Source: Candidatus Magasanikbacteria bacterium RIFOXYC2_FULL_42_28 (GTDB taxonomy: Bacteria; Patescibacteriota; Patescibacteriia; Magasanikbacterales; GWA2-37-8). Taken from it: a stretch of 64,000 nt of DNA. Made by a program: the position numbers and the translations under genes. The notes under the pieces are model-generated. The model did not search any database, was not told the DNA's origin, and worked only from the letters and a program-made list of their open reading frames with translations. Each line of letters begins with the position of its first letter. Position 1 is the first letter of the stretch. Of this stretch, positions 3,350 through 63,213 are shown in pieces. The stretch covers positions 82,340 through 146,339 of the forward strand of contig MFQZ01000001.1 in assembly GCA_001784435.1 (NCBI GenBank), read 5' to 3'.

Positions 3350-4735
3350 CTACACCCCTTTTAAAAACACCCCACCCACCGCGATTATATCAAATCCGGC
3401 TTTTTGTAAATCAGGATAACGATGTTGCCACAGGCGACGGCCGTCCATAATTAACGGCCGACCTTTGAATCCACTTAATAAAACATCGGCGAGGCCACGA
3501 AATTGTGGCCAGTCAGTGACGATAATTACCACGTCGGCCCCAGCCAACGCTTCTATTTCATTGGCCACGTAAATCAATTGTTTAGATGGAGGAAAAATAG
3601 TTTTAAACCACCGTAAAGCGGCCGGATCAAAAATATTTATTTTTTTCACTGACTGTTCCATTAAATAATTGACAATATCTATACTGGGAGAATTGCGAAT
3701 ATCGTTAGTGTCTTGTTTAAATGCCGTTCCAAACAACGCCACAGTTTTACCGCTCCAATCAAAATTTGCCTCGCGCTGCGCCCGACCGACAAAAATATTC
3801 AGTTGGCGTTTATTGGCTAAATATGTTTCGTTCACAATAGTAGCATTTTGCCCGGCCGATTGCAATTGGTGAGACAAGGAACGAGCGTCTTTAATAAAAC
3901 AACTGCCACCGGCATACAAACTATCATAAAACCCCCAATCGCCTATTCTTTTGTCTGACGTTAGTATTGACCGGATATTCTCAAATTTAATATCAGAAAA
4001 TGTCTCACAGGCGCGGCCAATCACATCAAAACAAACGGCTAATTTATTAAAAAGATAAAAATTAGCGAGCAGTTTACTGGCCGCCGCCTCTTTGGGATTC
4101 ACTTCTATGTATTTAATCGCGGTGGAATCATAAAATCGGCGATAGATTTGGCGCATGATTCCAAAATCTTTTTGACTGGACGCGCCTACGACTACACGAT
4201 CGGGTTTAAGCGAACCCGACACAGCCTTGCCTTCCACTAAAAATTCCGGGTTAGATACGACACCAAAATTTTTCACTCCCTGTTTTTTCATAATTTCCGC
4301 GGTCTGGTCTACCATATTAATTGGCACCGTACTTTTGTTTACAATCACGACATACTTGCTTTGTTTGTTAGTATTACGGCTAGCTAAAATCTGAGCCAAT
4401 TTAATAGTGGCAGAATTATAATACTTCAGATCACTTTCCCCGGTTTCGCCTATTTCCGGTGTTGGCAAACACATAAATATCGCGTCTACGTCTTCAATAA
4501 ACTCCTCTACTTTATCATAATCGCTGGTAAAAGTAAGATGCTCTCGATTGCGCACAATCAAATCACCCAGCCCCTCTTCAAACAGACACGACTCAATCGT
4601 ATCGCGATCATTCGCGCCTAACATGGCAATCTTATTTTCATCGATATCATAAGCCAATGTCTCGTGGCCACTATTTGCTGAAACCGCCGCCGAGCACGCG
4701 CCCACGAAGCCGGAACCAATATATAAAATTTTCAT
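3350..4735 (-). CDS. ugd: UDP-glucose 6-dehydrogenase (nucleotide-sugar dehydrogenase family)
   Basis: N-terminal Rossmann motif MKILYIGSGFVGA and catalytic-Cys motif GGSCFIKDA. 461 aa. Adjacent to a UDP-glucuronate decarboxylase gene. Confidence 0.75.
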   Translation of the reverse strand: MKILYIGSGFVGACSAAVSANSGHETLAYDIDENKIAMLGANDRDTIESCLFEEGLGDLIVRNREHLTFTSDYDKVEEFIEDVDAIFMCLPTPEIGETGESDLKYYNSATIKLAQILASRNTNKQSKYVVIVNKSTVPINMVDQTAEIMKKQGVKNFGVVSNPEFLVEGKAVSGSLKPDRVVVGASSQKDFGIMRQIYRRFYDSTAIKYIEVNPKEAAASKLLANFYLFNKLAVCFDVIGRACETFSDIKFENIRSILTSDKRIGDWGFYDSLYAGGSCFIKDARSLSHQLQSAGQNATIVNETYLANKRQLNIFVGRAQREANFDWSGKTVALFGTAFKQDTNDIRNSPSIDIVNYLMEQSVKKINIFDPAALRWFKTIFPPSKQLIYVANEIEALAGADVVIIVTDWPQFRGLADVLLSGFKGRPLIMDGRRLWQHRYPDLQKAGFDIIAVGGVFLKGV

Positions 4736-4736
4736 A

Positions 4737-5675
4737 TTAAATTTTTGTTTTAAAATATTCTATTGTTTTCACCAAACCATCTAAAAACGGAACGGCCGGC
4801 TGCCAACCCAGCGCCTCCTTCGCTTTGCTGATATCAGGGCAACGATTGGTCGGGTCATCTATCGGTAAATTTCGGTAAACAATCTTACTCTTTGATCCGG
4901 TTATTTTTTGTATTAGCTCTGCCACTTGTTTGATGGTAAATTCGGCGGAATTGCCCAAATTAACCGGACCGGTCAATTCGTCGTTTGAGTTCATCATTTT
5001 AACCAAACCACTCACTAAGTCATCGATAAAACAAAAGCTTCTGGTCTGCAAACCATCTCCATAAATGGTAATGTCATTGTCCCGTAAGGCCTGCACGATA
5101 AAATTAGATACTACTCGCCCATCGTTCTCGGACATACGTGAACCATAGGTATTAAAAATCCTAACGACTTTAATTTTTAAACCATACGAACGATGATAAT
5201 CAAAAAATAAGGTCTCGGCGCAACGCTTGCCCTCGTCGTAACAAGCGCGTGGGCCAATGGGATTTACATTCCCACGGTATGTTTCCGGTTGGGGGGAAAC
5301 TAATGGTTCTCCATAAACTTCGGAGGTGGAGGCCTGTAAAATTTTTGCGCCCCTTGCTTTTGCCAGATCAAGCAAGTTGGCCACACCAACGGTGTTGGTT
5401 TTAATGGTGTGAATGGCATCTTTCTGATACTGAATAGGCGAAGCCGGACAAGCTAAATTATAGATCTCAGCTACCGCTTCATCTGGATAAAACGGCTCGG
5501 TAATGTCATGCTTGATGAACTTAAACAACGCATTGGCATAAAAATCTTTTATATTATCCTCTGAACCGGTCAATAGGTTATCAACACAAATAACCCGATG
5601 GCCGGTCTTAAGCAAAAATTCGCATAAGTGGGAGCCGATGAAACCAGCACCACCGGTAACTATGATATTTTTCAT
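4737..5675 (-). CDS. uxs: UDP-glucuronate decarboxylase (UDP-xylose synthase)
   Basis: GGAGFIGSH motif. Long UXS-specific block [10 protein letters not shown]...[32 protein letters not shown]...[14 protein letters not shown] matches the UXS1/ArnA-decarboxylase family. Confidence 0.8.
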
Positions 5676-6427
5676 AAAAACAAATATTGGCCAATCTTAA
5701 AAAAAATCCTCCTTAGTATAAAAAATAAGGGCACGCGTTGACCATTCATCTTCCAGGACCGCCGCAATTCTTGCCAGCCCTCAATCCGCCTTCCTAAATT
5801 CCGGGAGCTATGCCCGCCCTCTTTCATGTTAATCAACGACTGATTGACATAACTCATTTTAATACCTTTTAACAAAAAACGCAACATCAATTCATAATCA
5901 GCGGCTACTTTGAAATTCAGATTGAACACTCCATACCGTTCATAAATTTCCTGCCTCACAAAAAATGCCGGGTGTGGCATTATCCAGCCGTCACGTAATC
6001 TATCTTGCTGGTAACCGCCCGCCTGCCAAAAGCGCACCCTCCGGCTTGGCACCTCTCTATCAACATAGGTAATGTCGCCATAACAGGCGTCAATATCCTC
6101 ACTGTCAAAACGATTTGCCACAATAGAGACAACGTGATTATCAGAAAAACAGTCGTCGGAATTTAATATCCCAATGACCGCGCCGGTAGCCAATTTTATG
6201 CCCTTATTCATAGCATCATAAATACCCTGGTCAGGTTCAGAAATAACACAACTAACTTTCCCTTCATATTTTTTAATAATATCTAAAGTCCCATCGGTTG
6301 ATCCGCCATCTATAATTATATATTCCAAAGAATTATAATCCTGACACAAAACACTATCAATAGTATTTTCGATTGTTGCTTTACTATTGAAACAAACTGT
6401 TATAATACTTATTTTTGCCATAATCAT
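5672..6427 (-). CDS. glycosyltransferase family 2
   Basis: [26 protein letters not shown]...[11 protein letters not shown] is a GT2 N-terminal signature. Confidence 0.7.
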
Positions 6428-62925: not shown

Positions 62926-63018
62926 AATATAATTAAGTATTCCATAAATTTTGCGCGCGCTCCGAAAGGAACTCGTCAAAATATTATGGAAGTGAGGCGA
63001 CCACGCGAACCCCCGACA

Positions 63019-63050
63019 GAGATCCCGATTTACATCGGGATGACAGTTGG
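63019..63050. repeat. hairpin element copy D (ATCCCGA-tttaca-TCGGGAT-GACAGTTGG) in the 5' leader / upstream extension of the giant surface-protein gene
   Basis: Read from the sequence. Confidence 0.55.
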
Positions 63051-63213
63051 GTGTCCGGAATGGGCAACCTCGCACAAAGATCCGTGCGAGCTCTTATGAG
63101 CCCTCGACTTTTGCAAAGATCGTGATAAACAATGTTTCTCTCTCCCCGAGTATGACAGTGATAAATTAATATTATCTGATGTCATACTTGGGAAAAAAAT
63201 AACAGATTTATTC

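Follow-up and report, generated by a model that had tools for sequence, protein, structure and literature searches.

What does a long block of sugar genes make in a CPR (Patescibacteria) bacterium, and to which surface molecule is its product attached? The question is raised by a 64,000-nucleotide stretch of DNA (the window) from the MAG of a Candidatus Magasanikbacteria bacterium, a tiny uncultured organism from aquifer groundwater. A preliminary description read the window as a self-contained island for O-glycosylation of surface proteins. Its list of parts is correct, with the gene families confirmed by Pfam, NCBIfam and PDB comparisons, and its statement that such a system had not been described in this lineage agrees with the literature, where no account of such a glycan or O-glycosylation system in CPR was found. 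The locus most likely gives these surface proteins, or some other envelope anchor, a coat of species-specific glycan.

Gene content of the locus

All 56 genes in the window are encoded on the minus strand, as is every supported ORF of at least 100 aa; the junctions are short or overlapping (Table 1). The glycan block contains 47 genes in 46 kb (3350-49381, minus strand) and lies directly downstream of the gene for a 704-aa protein with Wzy_C and TPR domains; three large secreted proteins are encoded upstream. The earlier picture of a single gene train is not supported. Terminators and promoters were sought by consensus scan only, which places strong terminator-like hairpins behind both the 1299-aa gene and the 738-aa gene, and a promoter of perfect consensus ahead of the wzm block. 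The glycan block probably has several promoters, and its GC content is mosaic (33-48%). As a result, it may encode more than one glycan.

Table 1. Features of the window, in order of descending coordinates
Feature	Position	Strand	Evidence or composition
SP1299, 1299-aa secreted S-layer-like protein (candidate)	59026..62925	-	Sec signal, four N-terminal beta-beta-beta-alpha repeats, then beta-sandwich string
Strong intrinsic-terminator-like hairpin	58950..58979	-	just past SP1299 stop; 12-bp stem, 8 GC pairs, T run; consensus scan only
738-aa secreted wall-bound protein	56563..58779	-	signal peptide, Thr-rich fn3-like repeats, Pro/Val/Thr linker, three PG_binding_1
Terminator-like hairpin after 738-aa gene	56516-56541		consensus scan
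136-aa coiled-coil-like protein; 171-aa protein with N-terminal TM helix	55258..56296	-	two small genes
SP1206, 1206-aa membrane-anchored surface protein	51617..55237	-	N-terminal domain, Thr/Ser/Pro linker (477-588), lamin-tail domain, beta-helix-like C-terminal part
Wzy_C-TPR ligase or O-oligosaccharyltransferase candidate, 704 aa	49385..51499	-	Wzy_C 72.5 bits; TPR tail
gmd and fcl, GDP-L-fucose route	47413..49381	-	family profile matches
81-aa HTH_17 DNA-binding protein	47080..47325	-	12/12 sigma-70 consensus promoter just before, at 47353-47382
Wzm, ABC-2 permease	46206..47024	-	ABC2_membrane 78 bits; six hydrophobic segments
HAD phosphatase, cupin, two nucleotidyltransferase-like proteins, 146-aa unknown, WavE-family protein, split transketolase (N and C halves)	40592..46201	-	family profiles
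SDR (343 aa), ColD-type GDP-4-keto-6-deoxymannose 3-dehydratase, 202-aa methyltransferase-like protein, Nudix protein resembling GDP-mannose mannosyl hydrolase	37094..40595	-	profiles, PDB
GT10-family glycosyltransferase (fucosyltransferase family)	36044..37090	-	Glyco_transf_10, 61 bits
Wzt, ABC ATPase with C-terminal Wzt_C glycan-binding domain	34771..36039	-	ABC_tran 85 bits; Wzt_C 55 bits (cut-off 30.4)
464-aa weakly SGNH/GDSL-like protein, DUF268 methyltransferase, GT11 glycosyltransferase	31786..34767	-	Pfam
Heptose-type module: HddA-like kinase, GmhA-like isomerase, GT2, RmlD-like reductase, two DegT aminotransferases, GalE-like SDR, fused nucleotidyltransferase and GmhB phosphatase	23593..31716	-	profiles
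GT2, asparagine-synthase homologue, GNT-I-like GT, SAM methyltransferase, sugar C-methyltransferase (Methyltransf_13/14), Gmd-like SDR, second GT2	16009..23553	-	profiles
230-aa GT2 (AglJ/PpgS/Dol-P-hexose-transferase-like), 635-aa GT-C (PMT/ArnT superfamily), 773-aa GT2 (ArnC/DPMS/GtrB-like) fused to ~10-TM-helix domain	11092..16006	-	profiles
Second GT11-like protein, GT2, 319-aa unknown protein, SDR, GT4, GT2	5672..11120	-	Pfam
UDP-glucose 6-dehydrogenase, UDP-glucuronate decarboxylase (UDP-xylose synthase)	3350..5675	-	TIGR03026; UXS1

Four activated-sugar families had been proposed, and three are confirmed: GDP-fucose, a ColD-type 3,6-dideoxyhexose and UDP-GlcA/UDP-xylose. In NCBIfam, Gmd matches TIGR01472 over the cut-off (567 bits) and Fcl matches NF047922 slightly below it (472 bits, cut-off 500). 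The ColD branch also draws its precursor from Gmd, and its dehydratase (38405-39562) has ColD as its top PDB match (2gms, E 1e-59) and a His aligned to ColD His188 ('GHH' vs 'SHH'). The UDP-glucose dehydrogenase scores 264 bits against TIGR03026, and the UDP-xylose synthase matches human UXS1 (E 2e-106). The fourth family, GDP-heptose, is probable, with a GmhA-like SIS protein, an HddA-like GHMP kinase and a nucleotidyltransferase-GmhB fusion that all score under the NCBIfam equivalog cut-offs.

The count of more than 12 glycosyltransferases holds: 13 proteins have Pfam GT matches and one more belongs to the WavE family (13-14 in total). Three of the four candidate methyltransferases are supported by Pfam, and the fourth, the 202-aa ORF, by a GxGxG-like motif seen by eye only, which fits the "three or four" given before. 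The SGNH/GDSL-like protein, the DUF268 methyltransferase and the GT11 protein are candidate terminal-modification enzymes. The Wzm/Wzt exporter also stands as described, including the carbohydrate-binding C-domain of Wzt, whose presence suggests that the chain carries a terminal cap read by Wzt_C. The GT10 protein, two GT11 matches (109 and 31.5 bits in Pfam) and the GDP-fucose route had led to the proposal of a host-mimicking, Lewis- or H-antigen-like glycan. However, membership of GT10 or GT11 fixes neither acceptor nor linkage and is silent on Lewis or H structures, and no enzymes for type-1 or type-2 Gal/GlcNAc chains were identified. The organism comes from groundwater, and its episymbiont lineage is thought to live on other microbes. 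Such mimicry is extremely improbable.

Family searches gave no match to lipid A, Kdo, core or outer-membrane families anywhere in the window, in agreement with the preliminary description, and none to Wzx or to LCP or pyruvyltransferase families. Genes for lipid A/LPS are reportedly missing from CPR genomes (PMC5220378). A self-contained locus is not supported: neither in the window nor in its flanks (~1.5 kb past the low-coordinate end, ~6 kb past the high-coordinate end) was an initiating phosphoglycosyltransferase, a GtrA-like flippase or a clear ManB/ManC found.

A conserved ligase and its possible acceptors

The Wzy_C-TPR protein has a WaaL-fold domain with 12 TM helices. A linker of low confidence (residues 429-456) connects it to a 13th TM helix, and the TPR domain covers residues ~503-700. 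The 13th helix, together with the analogy to WaaL topology, would place the TPR domain outside, on the catalytic side. Arg218 of GTRG, Arg294 and His344 of DNAHN are invariant. They align with 'GTRG/vRL/HAHN' in WaaL and, in the chain 9rmk deposited as an oligosaccharyltransferase, with 'THSHN'. Relatives of the gene occur in at least 203 species genomes (44-78% identity), and 26 homologues are 52-72% identical, with a mean column identity of 63%. It is a conserved core gene of the lineage.

The genes around it were compared in 80 related loci, 59 of which are informative (at least 6 kb upstream of the ligase). Downstream content is variable: 416 genes form 214 clusters, and 148 of these are confined to one locus. 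The sugar genes vary by species; the gmd/fcl pair recurs downstream of the ligase in 32-34 of the 80 loci, the transketolase pair with the next SDR in L018, L047 and L070, and the DUF268 and GT11 homologues in L052 and L074. Wzx is found in most loci (23 of 55 membrane proteins are Wzx flippases) and Wzm/Wzt in few (adjacent in four). A conserved ligase with changing downstream genes is the pattern of a single ligase that serves many glycans. Repeat-unit polymerases of the Wzy type also carry Wzy_C, and the WaaL chain 7tpg is deposited as 'polymerase/ligase', but it is very unlikely that the protein is a polymerase instead. The window has an ABC exporter and no Wzx, the identity cited above is kept while glycan genes change, which is opposite to the behaviour of Wzy polymerases, and related loci encode other polytopic membrane proteins besides it (430-530 aa), of which 23 are Wzx-type.

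Synteny, proposed as a check, is observed upstream of the ligase. In 33 of the 59 informative loci the ligase is preceded, in the same orientation, by a gene of the SP1299 family, which is missing within 10 kb in 26. The likeliest start of the SP1299 gene in the window is ATG 62925, which gives 1299 aa and a Sec signal (...AQA|AD), and not GTG 63075, as first assumed. SP1299 has no Pfam match, and among the homologues found its family is confined to Patescibacteria. Its AF2 model (pLDDT 85.7) matches Ig-like arrays in Foldseek, including the S-layer proteins 7ptp, SbsB and SbsC. On architecture alone, SP1299 is a candidate S-layer-like protein of a new family without an SLH domain. For the 738-aa protein, none of the 80 related loci showed a homologue close to the ligase. 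SP1206, with a lamin-tail domain (LTD) at 31.9 bits, under the cut-off, has homologues with a linker in the same position immediately upstream of the ligase in L007, L011, L041, L048 and L061; the 171-aa gene accompanies its family in relatives. Pro/Thr/Ser-rich linkers had been ascribed to all three large proteins. Only that of SP1206 is truly mucin-like; the linker of the 738-aa protein is of Pro/Val/Thr type, and SP1299 has none. Across loci, Pro/Thr/Ser-rich segments occur in 12 of 351 upstream genes versus 0 of 558 downstream genes.

The interpretation of this locus as a cell-surface glycoconjugate locus of slg-like protein O-glycosylation, with en bloc transfer by the Wzy_C-TPR protein, is plausible and has about an even chance of being correct. 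The slg analogy is apt, but the protein acceptor is not settled by the ligase: its membrane-domain profile scores 33.5 bits against WaaL and 29.3 bits against the 'oligosaccharyltransferase' chain 9rmk, values that are about equal and show no firm clustering with WaaL. The polymer could also be ligated to a non-protein acceptor. This might be a membrane glycolipid, which would yield a lipoglycan equivalent to O-antigen in a monoderm, or a wall-linked unit; the surface proteins would then be unrelated or polymer-binding. This is a possible but doubtful reading. It is favored by the closest solved structure, the lipid-acceptor ligase WaaL, by a Pfam result of Wzy_C alone, with no PglL-specific domain reported, and by the 26 loci without SP1299 nearby. 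Distant SP1299 relatives carry SLH or PG_binding_1 modules in the N-terminal position, so the SP1299 repeats could be a polymer- or wall-binding module. S-layer genes are known to lie beside genes of the wall polymers that anchor them, a pattern seen in Firmicutes, and this makes the ligase-SP1299 synteny ambiguous. On the other hand, the canonical non-protein acceptor is missing, as CPR are reported without lipid A (PMC5220378) and the window has no LPS genes. The extra TM helix and TPR tail are reported for O-oligosaccharyltransferases (PMC2943079) and absent from the 403-residue WaaL chain. One would expect conservation of an anchoring polymer, yet the downstream sugar genes vary strongly, and the window lacks LCP and pyruvyltransferase matches.

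Proposed pathway and the polyprenyl-phosphate-sugar branch

In slg-like O-glycosylation, cytoplasmic enzymes would supply GDP-fucose, a GDP-3,6-dideoxyhexose and UDP-GlcA/UDP-xylose, with a GDP-heptose derivative as a probable further product. About a dozen glycosyltransferases would then assemble a heteropolymer, carried by undecaprenyl diphosphate, on the inner membrane face. Wzt_C would read a terminal modification, probably methylation, and the finished chain would leave through Wzm/Wzt. Outside, the Wzy_C-TPR enzyme would take the whole chain off its lipid carrier and attach it to Ser/Thr residues in the surface proteins encoded just upstream, with the external TPR domain gripping the protein acceptor; S-layer-like SP1299 and the mucin-like linker of SP1206 are the candidates. 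We infer the lipid carrier, the cap, the TPR position and, above all, the protein acceptor.

The GT2/GT-C branch would attach single sugars from polyprenyl phosphate at the outer face. It had been likened to Ppm1/Pmt protein O-mannosylation, which is supported no better than GtrB/GtrC- or ArnC/ArnT-type glycan decoration. The chances are evenly balanced that the 230-aa GT2, the 635-aa GT-C and the 773-aa fusion decorate an already exported glycan in a GtrB/GtrC-, ArnC/ArnT- or streptococcal GacI/GacL-like manner. The GT2 domains are closest to ArnC, DPMS, GtrB (sll0501), AglJ, PpgS and PgfS, and the genes lie deep in the polysaccharide block, flanked by other glycosyltransferases. The GT-C protein matches PMT_2 weakly (21.8 bits, under the cut-off), and its homologues bear PMT_2/PMT and are variously named ArnT-like or GT39. 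However, true protein mannosyltransferases also fall under PMT_2 and PMT, the best NCBIfam match of the 230-aa GT2 is AglJ, an archaeal S-layer N-glycosylation enzyme (111 bits, cut-off 325), no GtrA-type flippase was found in the window, and the sequence does not reveal the acceptor.

Comparison with known systems

The locus resembles the slg clusters of Geobacillus stearothermophilus NRS 2004/3a, Paenibacillus alvei and Aneurinibacillus thermoaerophilus (WsaB/WsfB) in its nucleotide-sugar genes, glycosyltransferases, Wzm/Wzt and Wzy_C enzyme with TPR. Aneurinibacillus uses a GDP-D-glycero-D-manno-heptose route, and a GDP-heptose route is probable here. Wzt reads a methylated chain end there, and Wzt_C is present here. 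The slg clusters of these three genera are reported to combine a Wzt_C-bearing ABC exporter and a Wzy_C enzyme associated with a TPR element with an asparagine-synthase homologue, to have a target protein gene transcribed on its own, and to occupy no fixed position (PMC2943079). The asparagine-synthase homologue (WsfA in slg) and the separately transcribed target gene are shared. In contrast to slg, the window has no WsaP-like initiating transferase, the organism belongs to CPR, and the candidate target is a new protein family without SLH. The cluster here is mosaic and three to four times the size of its slg counterparts, synteny between ligase and target gene holds across the lineage, and glycosylation is predicted from the genes.

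Acceptor regions in PglL-type general O-glycosylation (Neisseria, Acinetobacter, Burkholderia) are of low complexity and rich in Ser/Thr/Pro/Ala, and the candidate acceptor regions here are similar. Shared features also include the Wzy_C catalytic domain with its conserved His/Arg set and a single conserved transferase with variable glycans. WsfB and PglL are both reported to combine Wzy_C with a C-terminal TPR, and next to the WsaB gene lies one for a TPR protein (PMC2943079). However, profile similarity to 9rmk amounts to 29 bits, the PglL-specific Pfam domain is not reported, the organism is of monoderm type, and the product is an ABC-pathway polymer, not a short oligosaccharide with a Wzx/PglK-type flippase.

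A conserved ligase beside a hypervariable glycan locus, with a Wzx/Wzy or ABC pathway, also recalls WaaL and O-antigen loci. These differ in their lipid A-core genes, absent from the window and reportedly from CPR (PMC5220378), and the Wzy_C-TPR protein is ~300 residues longer than WaaL, with an extra TM helix and TPR domain. The branch shares with GtrA/B/C, ArnC/ArnT and Ppm1/Pmt the side-by-side polyprenyl-phosphate-sugar GT2 synthase and PMT/ArnT-superfamily GT-C, but lacks a small GtrA flippase in the window and has a second synthase fused to a ~10-TM domain without a Pfam match. In summary, the locus is a so far unstudied case of a familiar type of system, and its mechanism is not new. 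What is new is a conserved lineage ligase, its synteny with an S-layer-like family and the species-variable sugar genes in CPR.

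The ligase and the genes upstream of it

A single enzyme is the fixed point throughout 80 related loci. This is the ligase, a 704-aa Wzy_C and TPR protein that is a ligase or O-oligosaccharyltransferase (O-OTase) candidate. An identical hypothetical protein is on record from Candidatus Magasanikbacteria bacterium RIFOXYC2_FULL_42, a CPR/Patescibacteria MAG, where it is encoded on a contig of 355 kb. Over 120 homologues, each about 690 aa in length, are 52-78% identical to it. A pattern scan that took a single genome from each species identified 203 that encode a relative; the best 80 of these relatives are 44-72% identical and belong nearly all to Magasanikbacteria or unclassified Patescibacteria. 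Many of the ligase-carrying species-representative MAGs (L008, L009, L011-L013 and many others, with L021 also cited) are titled 'uncultured Gammaproteobacteria', and one 'Candidatus Udaeobacter'. These MAGs, with a ligase of the Patescibacteria type, are probably mislabelled or mis-binned. Thirteen loci contain a tandem paralogue of the same Wzy_C and TPR architecture, 23-29% identical to the orthologue. Two ligases may serve two glycans or two acceptors.

The juxtaposition of ligase and surface-protein genes, on which the preliminary description built its proposal, recurs in relatives. Among the 59 loci with at least 6 kb of upstream sequence, 33 have a gene of the SP1299 family (the family of the 1299-aa S-layer-like secreted protein in the window) upstream on the same strand, and a DUF5667 protein precedes it in 30 of the 33. 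In 26 of the 59 loci, and likewise in this genome, the region upstream of the ligase also encodes an ECF sigma factor. The conservation of the ECF/DUF5667 arrangement in 26-30 of the 59 loci suggests dedicated regulation of the surface-protein gene. The family of SP1206, the 1206-aa surface protein, is directly upstream of the ligase in five other loci, and in four of the five a homologue of the 171-aa protein accompanies it. Of 351 upstream genes, 12 encode a Pro/Thr/Ser-rich segment of 40 aa or longer, as against none of 558 downstream genes. In the window, such linkers had been ascribed to all three large secreted proteins. SP1206 does have a mucin-like Thr/Ser/Pro segment (residues 477-588) and SP1299 has none; the linker of the 738-aa protein is Pro/Val/Thr, and this protein also has Thr-rich fn3-like repeats and three PG_binding_1 domains.

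The SP1299 family is found only in Patescibacteria and is without a Pfam match; its sequence changes faster than that of the ligase. The start of SP1299 had been placed at 63075, but the ATG at 62925 is the better choice and gives 1299 aa with a Sec signal. The signal peptide is followed by an N-terminal repeat module and a beta-sandwich array; in the structural model (pLDDT 85.7), four small beta-beta-beta-alpha repeats are joined by a short flexible link to a long array of beta-sandwiches. The structural neighbours found by Foldseek are Ig-like arrays with low TM-scores and include SbsB, SbsC, an archaeal S-layer protein, adhesins and complement proteins. These hits are generic, and the predicted fold would be compatible with either S-layer proteins or adhesins. 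Distant homologues share the repeat core and have an SLH or PG_binding_1 domain at the N-terminus instead. Gram-positive S-layer proteins are built on such a modular scheme, with an exchangeable wall anchor and then an assembly region, and the designation 'S-layer-like' is therefore reasonable but unproven. The N-terminal domain of SP1299 (residues 38-255) has two conserved Cys in its four repeats. Its profile gave nothing significant against PDB sequences, the best match being the EccB1 repeat domain at E ~1. Because relatives have SLH or PG_binding_1 at that position, this domain may be a new wall-binding module.

Coordinates of features in the window and in related loci
Feature	Sequence	Position
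389-aa protein, C-terminal SleB-type domain	window	517-1686
AbiEii-family toxin and 217-aa partner	window	1691-3176
Homologous AbiEii pair	L023	~8200-9900
Glycan block (47 genes, 46 kb)	window	3350-49381
Polyprenyl-phosphate branch	window	11092..16006 (-)
C-terminal 523 aa of 773-aa GT2	window	11092-12663
ColD-type dehydratase	window	38405-39562
Split transketolase (N and C halves) and SDR	window	39564-42267
HTH_17 protein with promoter-like site	window	47080-47382
Ligase	window	49385..51499 (-)
SP1206	window	51617..55237 (-)
SP1299	window	59026..62925 (-)
SP1299 N-terminal domain	window	62160-62814
C-terminus of DUF5667 gene	window	63470-63997
ECF-type sigma-70 factor and 439-aa DUF5667 membrane protein before SP1299 gene, upstream of window	L003	3299-5310
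33-37% GC stretches (examples)	window	6001-24000; 36001-40000; 42001-44000
Tandem ligase paralogue	L006	45-1460
Tandem ligase paralogue, between SP1299-family gene and ligase orthologue	L037, L043, L044, L046, L053, L056, L057, L059, L068, L072, L077, L084	
~500-aa TM family	L009	12825-14342
~500-aa TM family	L012	13542-15053
~500-aa TM family	L029	4481-5983
~500-aa TM family	L054	13521-15041
~500-aa TM family	L070	7421-8938
~500-aa TM family	L072	13558-15036
~500-aa TM family	L074	13578-15053

The downstream glycan block

Nearly every item in the parts list of the preliminary description was confirmed by Pfam, NCBIfam and PDB sequence searches. The score of Gmd on TIGR01472 is 567 bits, above the equivalog cut-off, and that of Fcl on NF047922 is 472 bits, slightly below the cut-off of that model. 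For a GDP-L-colitose-type 3,6-dideoxyhexose pathway, both Gmd and a ColD dehydratase in which His replaces the PLP-binding Lys are present, and no protein could be assigned as the ColC-type reductase of the last step. The dehydratase is a DegT-family protein that best matches E. coli ColD (2gms, E 1e-59), and its His aligns with ColD His188. A Nudix protein resembling GDP-mannose mannosyl hydrolase comes after the ColD-type gene. The split transketolase and SDR block adjoins the ColD-type gene in the window and recurs in the glycan loci of L018, L047 and L070. With a TPP enzyme next to a route for 3,6-dideoxy-4-keto sugars, the arrangement brings to mind how branched-chain sugars like yersiniose are made, a speculative parallel. 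UDP-glucose dehydrogenase and UDP-glucuronate decarboxylase are clear, the latter matching human UXS1 at E 2e-106. The heptose domain set is complete, with a SIS isomerase, a GHMP kinase and a fused nucleotidyltransferase and GmhB phosphatase. As each member falls below its NCBIfam equivalog cut-off (HddA 146 against 600, GmhA 105 against 209, GmhB 157 against 178, HddC 70 against 300), the GDP-D-glycero-alpha-D-manno-heptose route is probable rather than certain.

Glycosyltransferase families are matched by 13 proteins, including GT10, two GT11 and GT4, and WavE is matched by one more. A fucosylated, host-mimicking glycan had been read from this set. We reject that reading, as nothing ties these fucosyltransferase families to Lewis or H structures and the organism is from groundwater. 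The exporter is supported by matches to ABC2_membrane (78 bits) for Wzm and to ABC_tran (85 bits) and Wzt_C (55 bits, cut-off 30.4) for Wzt. Three methyltransferases have Pfam support and a fourth is a motif-only candidate; none of the four could be linked with terminating the chain, and none has an architecture like that of WbdD.

The polyprenyl-phosphate branch consists of GT2_230 (a 230-aa GT2), a 635-aa GT-C protein and a 773-aa fusion of GT2 and membrane domains. The nearest relatives of GT2_230 and of the N-domain of the fusion are ArnC, DPMS, GtrB, AglJ and PpgS; the C-terminal part of the fusion has about 10 TM helices and no Pfam match. The 635-aa protein itself scores 21.8 bits, below the cut-off, but its homologues carry PMT_2/PMT and, judged by these, it belongs to the PMT/ArnT GT-C superfamily. 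The preliminary description compared the branch with Ppm1/Pmt-type protein O-mannosylation. We do not prefer this comparison, since decoration of the glycan in the manner of GtrB/GtrC or ArnC/ArnT is at least as likely. In related loci, a family of about 500 aa with about 10 TM helices and no Pfam match lies near a GT2_230-like gene just downstream of the ligase. Examined as possible PMT-type GT-C enzymes or kin of the window's GT-C, these proteins showed neither a Pfam match nor HMM similarity. They may be an undescribed polyprenyl-phosphate-sugar-dependent transferase or flippase.

The system is not self-contained as had been claimed: no initiating transferase, GtrA-type flippase or clear ManB/ManC was identified in the window and the flanks read. 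For a WecA/WbaP-type initiator, neither Bac_transf nor Glycos_transf_4 was matched in the window ORFs and both flanks. In the related loci, no initiating phosphoglycosyltransferase (PGT) was found among 55 downstream membrane proteins with at least three TM helices. Genes for initiating transferases are often located elsewhere in the genome. As in the preliminary description, LPS functions are not in evidence: searches of the window gave no match to lipid A, Kdo, core or outer-membrane families, and the window ORFs and flanks read contain no member of the lpx, kds or waa families.

The content of this block changes from one relative to the next. On the downstream side, about 32 related loci have gmd/fcl, 24 have a UXS-like gene and 20 have one like GT2_230. 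Wzm and Wzt are adjacent, as in the window, in just four related loci, and Wzx-type flippases make up 23 of the 55 polytopic downstream proteins. The 43 loci whose flanks are complete have 416 downstream genes in 214 clusters, and 148 of these clusters are confined to a single locus. Widely shared clusters (at 35% identity) hold 19% of upstream and 11% of downstream genes, so that clustering supports a variable downstream side but no sharp contrast between the two sides. Since one conserved Wzy_C enzyme serves changing sugar sets and either Wzx- or ABC-type pathways, it behaves as a ligase or oligosaccharyltransferase, and its reading as a polymerase (Wzy) was dropped.

All supported ORFs of the window are on the minus strand, and neighbours overlap or are separated by short gaps. 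They had been described as a single gene train, but a consensus scan places strong terminator-like hairpins after the genes for the 1299-aa and 738-aa proteins and promoter-like sites ahead of the ligase and of the HTH/wzm block. The latter site is a perfect TTGACA-18-TATAAT with extended TG, and the gene behind it, between fcl and wzm, is for an HTH_17 DNA-binding protein of 81 aa. Judged by these signals, the train is probably several transcription units, and the hairpin after the SP1299 gene suggests monocistronic expression. The GC content of the window is a mosaic of 33-48%, with 45-48% in the surface-protein genes and 33-37% in parts of the glycan block. This base composition suggests that the 46-kb block was pieced together from several acquisitions, would fit stepwise horizontal gain, and suggests that the block may make more than one glycan. 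At its distal end is an AbiEii-family nucleotidyltransferase toxin with its partner, and in L023 homologues of both are found immediately upstream of the ligase; the pair may be a toxin-antitoxin module tied to this variable locus. Just past the block is a gene whose 389-aa product has a cell-wall hydrolase domain of the SleB type at its C-terminus (Hydrolase_2, 33.7 bits), and L036 has a homologue upstream of the ligase.

The acceptor of the ligase and comparison with known systems

Residues 204-363 of the ligase match Wzy_C (PF04932) at 72.5 bits, where the cut-off is 31.7. Fold comparison, with libraries that contained WaaL but no O-OTase of this family, assigns the membrane domain to the WaaL fold, with 12 TM helices and the catalytic loop between TM9 and TM10. 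R218, R294 and H344 are invariant across 22-27 homologues and align with the motifs 'SRT', 'PRQ' and 'HSHN' of 9rmk, a PDB chain deposited as 'oligosaccharyltransferase', and with those of WaaL. In the model, helix 12 is followed by a low-confidence linker, a 13th helix and the TPR domain. TPR matches cover about 579-661 within a helical repeat domain at 503-697, and TPR Pfam families are on record for most homologues. If the topology is that of WaaL, the TPR domain would be external, beside the catalytic loop. With 704 aa, a 13th helix and TPR, the ligase departs from the WaaL trait of about 400 residues without an extra soluble domain.

PglL_A and Wzy_C_2 are accessory Pfam domains used to tell O-OTases from WaaL. 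Neither is matched in the ligase, for which Pfam reports Wzy_C alone at E <= 1e-3. Their absence weakens O-OTase membership and does not exclude it, because both are proteobacterial signatures. The ligase-family profile gives near-equal and weak scores against PDB sequences, 33.5 bits for WaaL and 29.3 bits for 9rmk. With these scores and no PglL-specific domain, homology does not settle the acceptor.

The proposed mechanism is as follows. Sugars would be activated in the cytoplasm and assembled into a polymer on undecaprenyl diphosphate. Wzt_C would read a terminal modification and the chain would be exported through Wzm/Wzt. The Wzy_C-TPR enzyme would then move the chain onto Ser/Thr of the adjacent surface proteins, and the GT2/GT-C branch would add single sugars outside. 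We regard the whole mechanism, protein acceptor included, as evenly balanced between right and wrong. In the main alternative, which leaves the rest of the mechanism unchanged, the acceptor would be a glycolipid or wall unit, with the neighbouring proteins being co-located envelope parts or possibly polymer binders. This alternative is favored by the WaaL-like fold and by the ambiguity of the synteny with surface proteins. An anchoring polymer is disfavored by the TPR tail and by how strongly the sugar genes vary, and we consider the alternative less likely than the protein acceptor. If the acceptor is not protein, the locus would define a lipoglycan pathway that is WaaL-like and independent of LPS, in a lineage of monoderm type.

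Returning to a protein acceptor, we tentatively propose, at somewhat less than even confidence, a lineage-wide module for O-glycosylation of surface proteins in Magasanikbacteria and perhaps wider Patescibacteria (CPR). It would comprise a new S-layer family, one or two Wzy_C-TPR O-OTases, an upstream ECF-sigma/DUF5667 pair and a hypervariable glycan cassette. If true, the module would be the CPR counterpart of O-antigen, shaping host attachment and phage susceptibility of these episymbionts. The CPR envelope is where ultra-small episymbionts meet hosts and phages. CPR genomes are typically near 1 Mb, and a cassette of up to about 46 kb is a large investment for them. What makes the locus valuable is that its conserved module of ligase and surface protein opens CPR surface glycosylation to direct testing, through a concrete model of a conserved ligase (catalytic His344), a candidate S-layer family and a swappable glycan cassette. 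The ligase is also of possible practical interest as a distant O-oligosaccharyltransferase for glyco-engineering.

Lipid A and LPS genes are reported to be absent from CPR genomes, and the formation and structure of the CPR envelope are said to remain unclear, with a glycosylated S-layer speculated (PMC5220378). Searches of full-text literature turned up no description of the ligase, the SP1299 family or protein glycosylation in Patescibacteria. The locus is an unstudied slg- or O-antigen-like system whose terminal transferase is of the Wzy_C family, and the envelope of its lineage has hardly been characterised. Of the slg-like protein O-glycosylation system first described, the parts are confirmed and the interpretation is supported in part: the ligase/surface-protein module stands, but self-containment and host mimicry do not. 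WsaB and WsfB carry Wzy_C, and a C-terminal TPR motif is found in WsfB and PglL (PMC2943079). A small TPR protein, WsaA, precedes WsaB, which places TPR in trans (PMC2943079). The ligase resembles WaaL in its 12-TM fold and differs in its 13th TM helix and TPR domain. With Wzy_C and TPR combined as in WsfB and PglL, its architecture is that of known or predicted O-OTases rather than that of WaaL.
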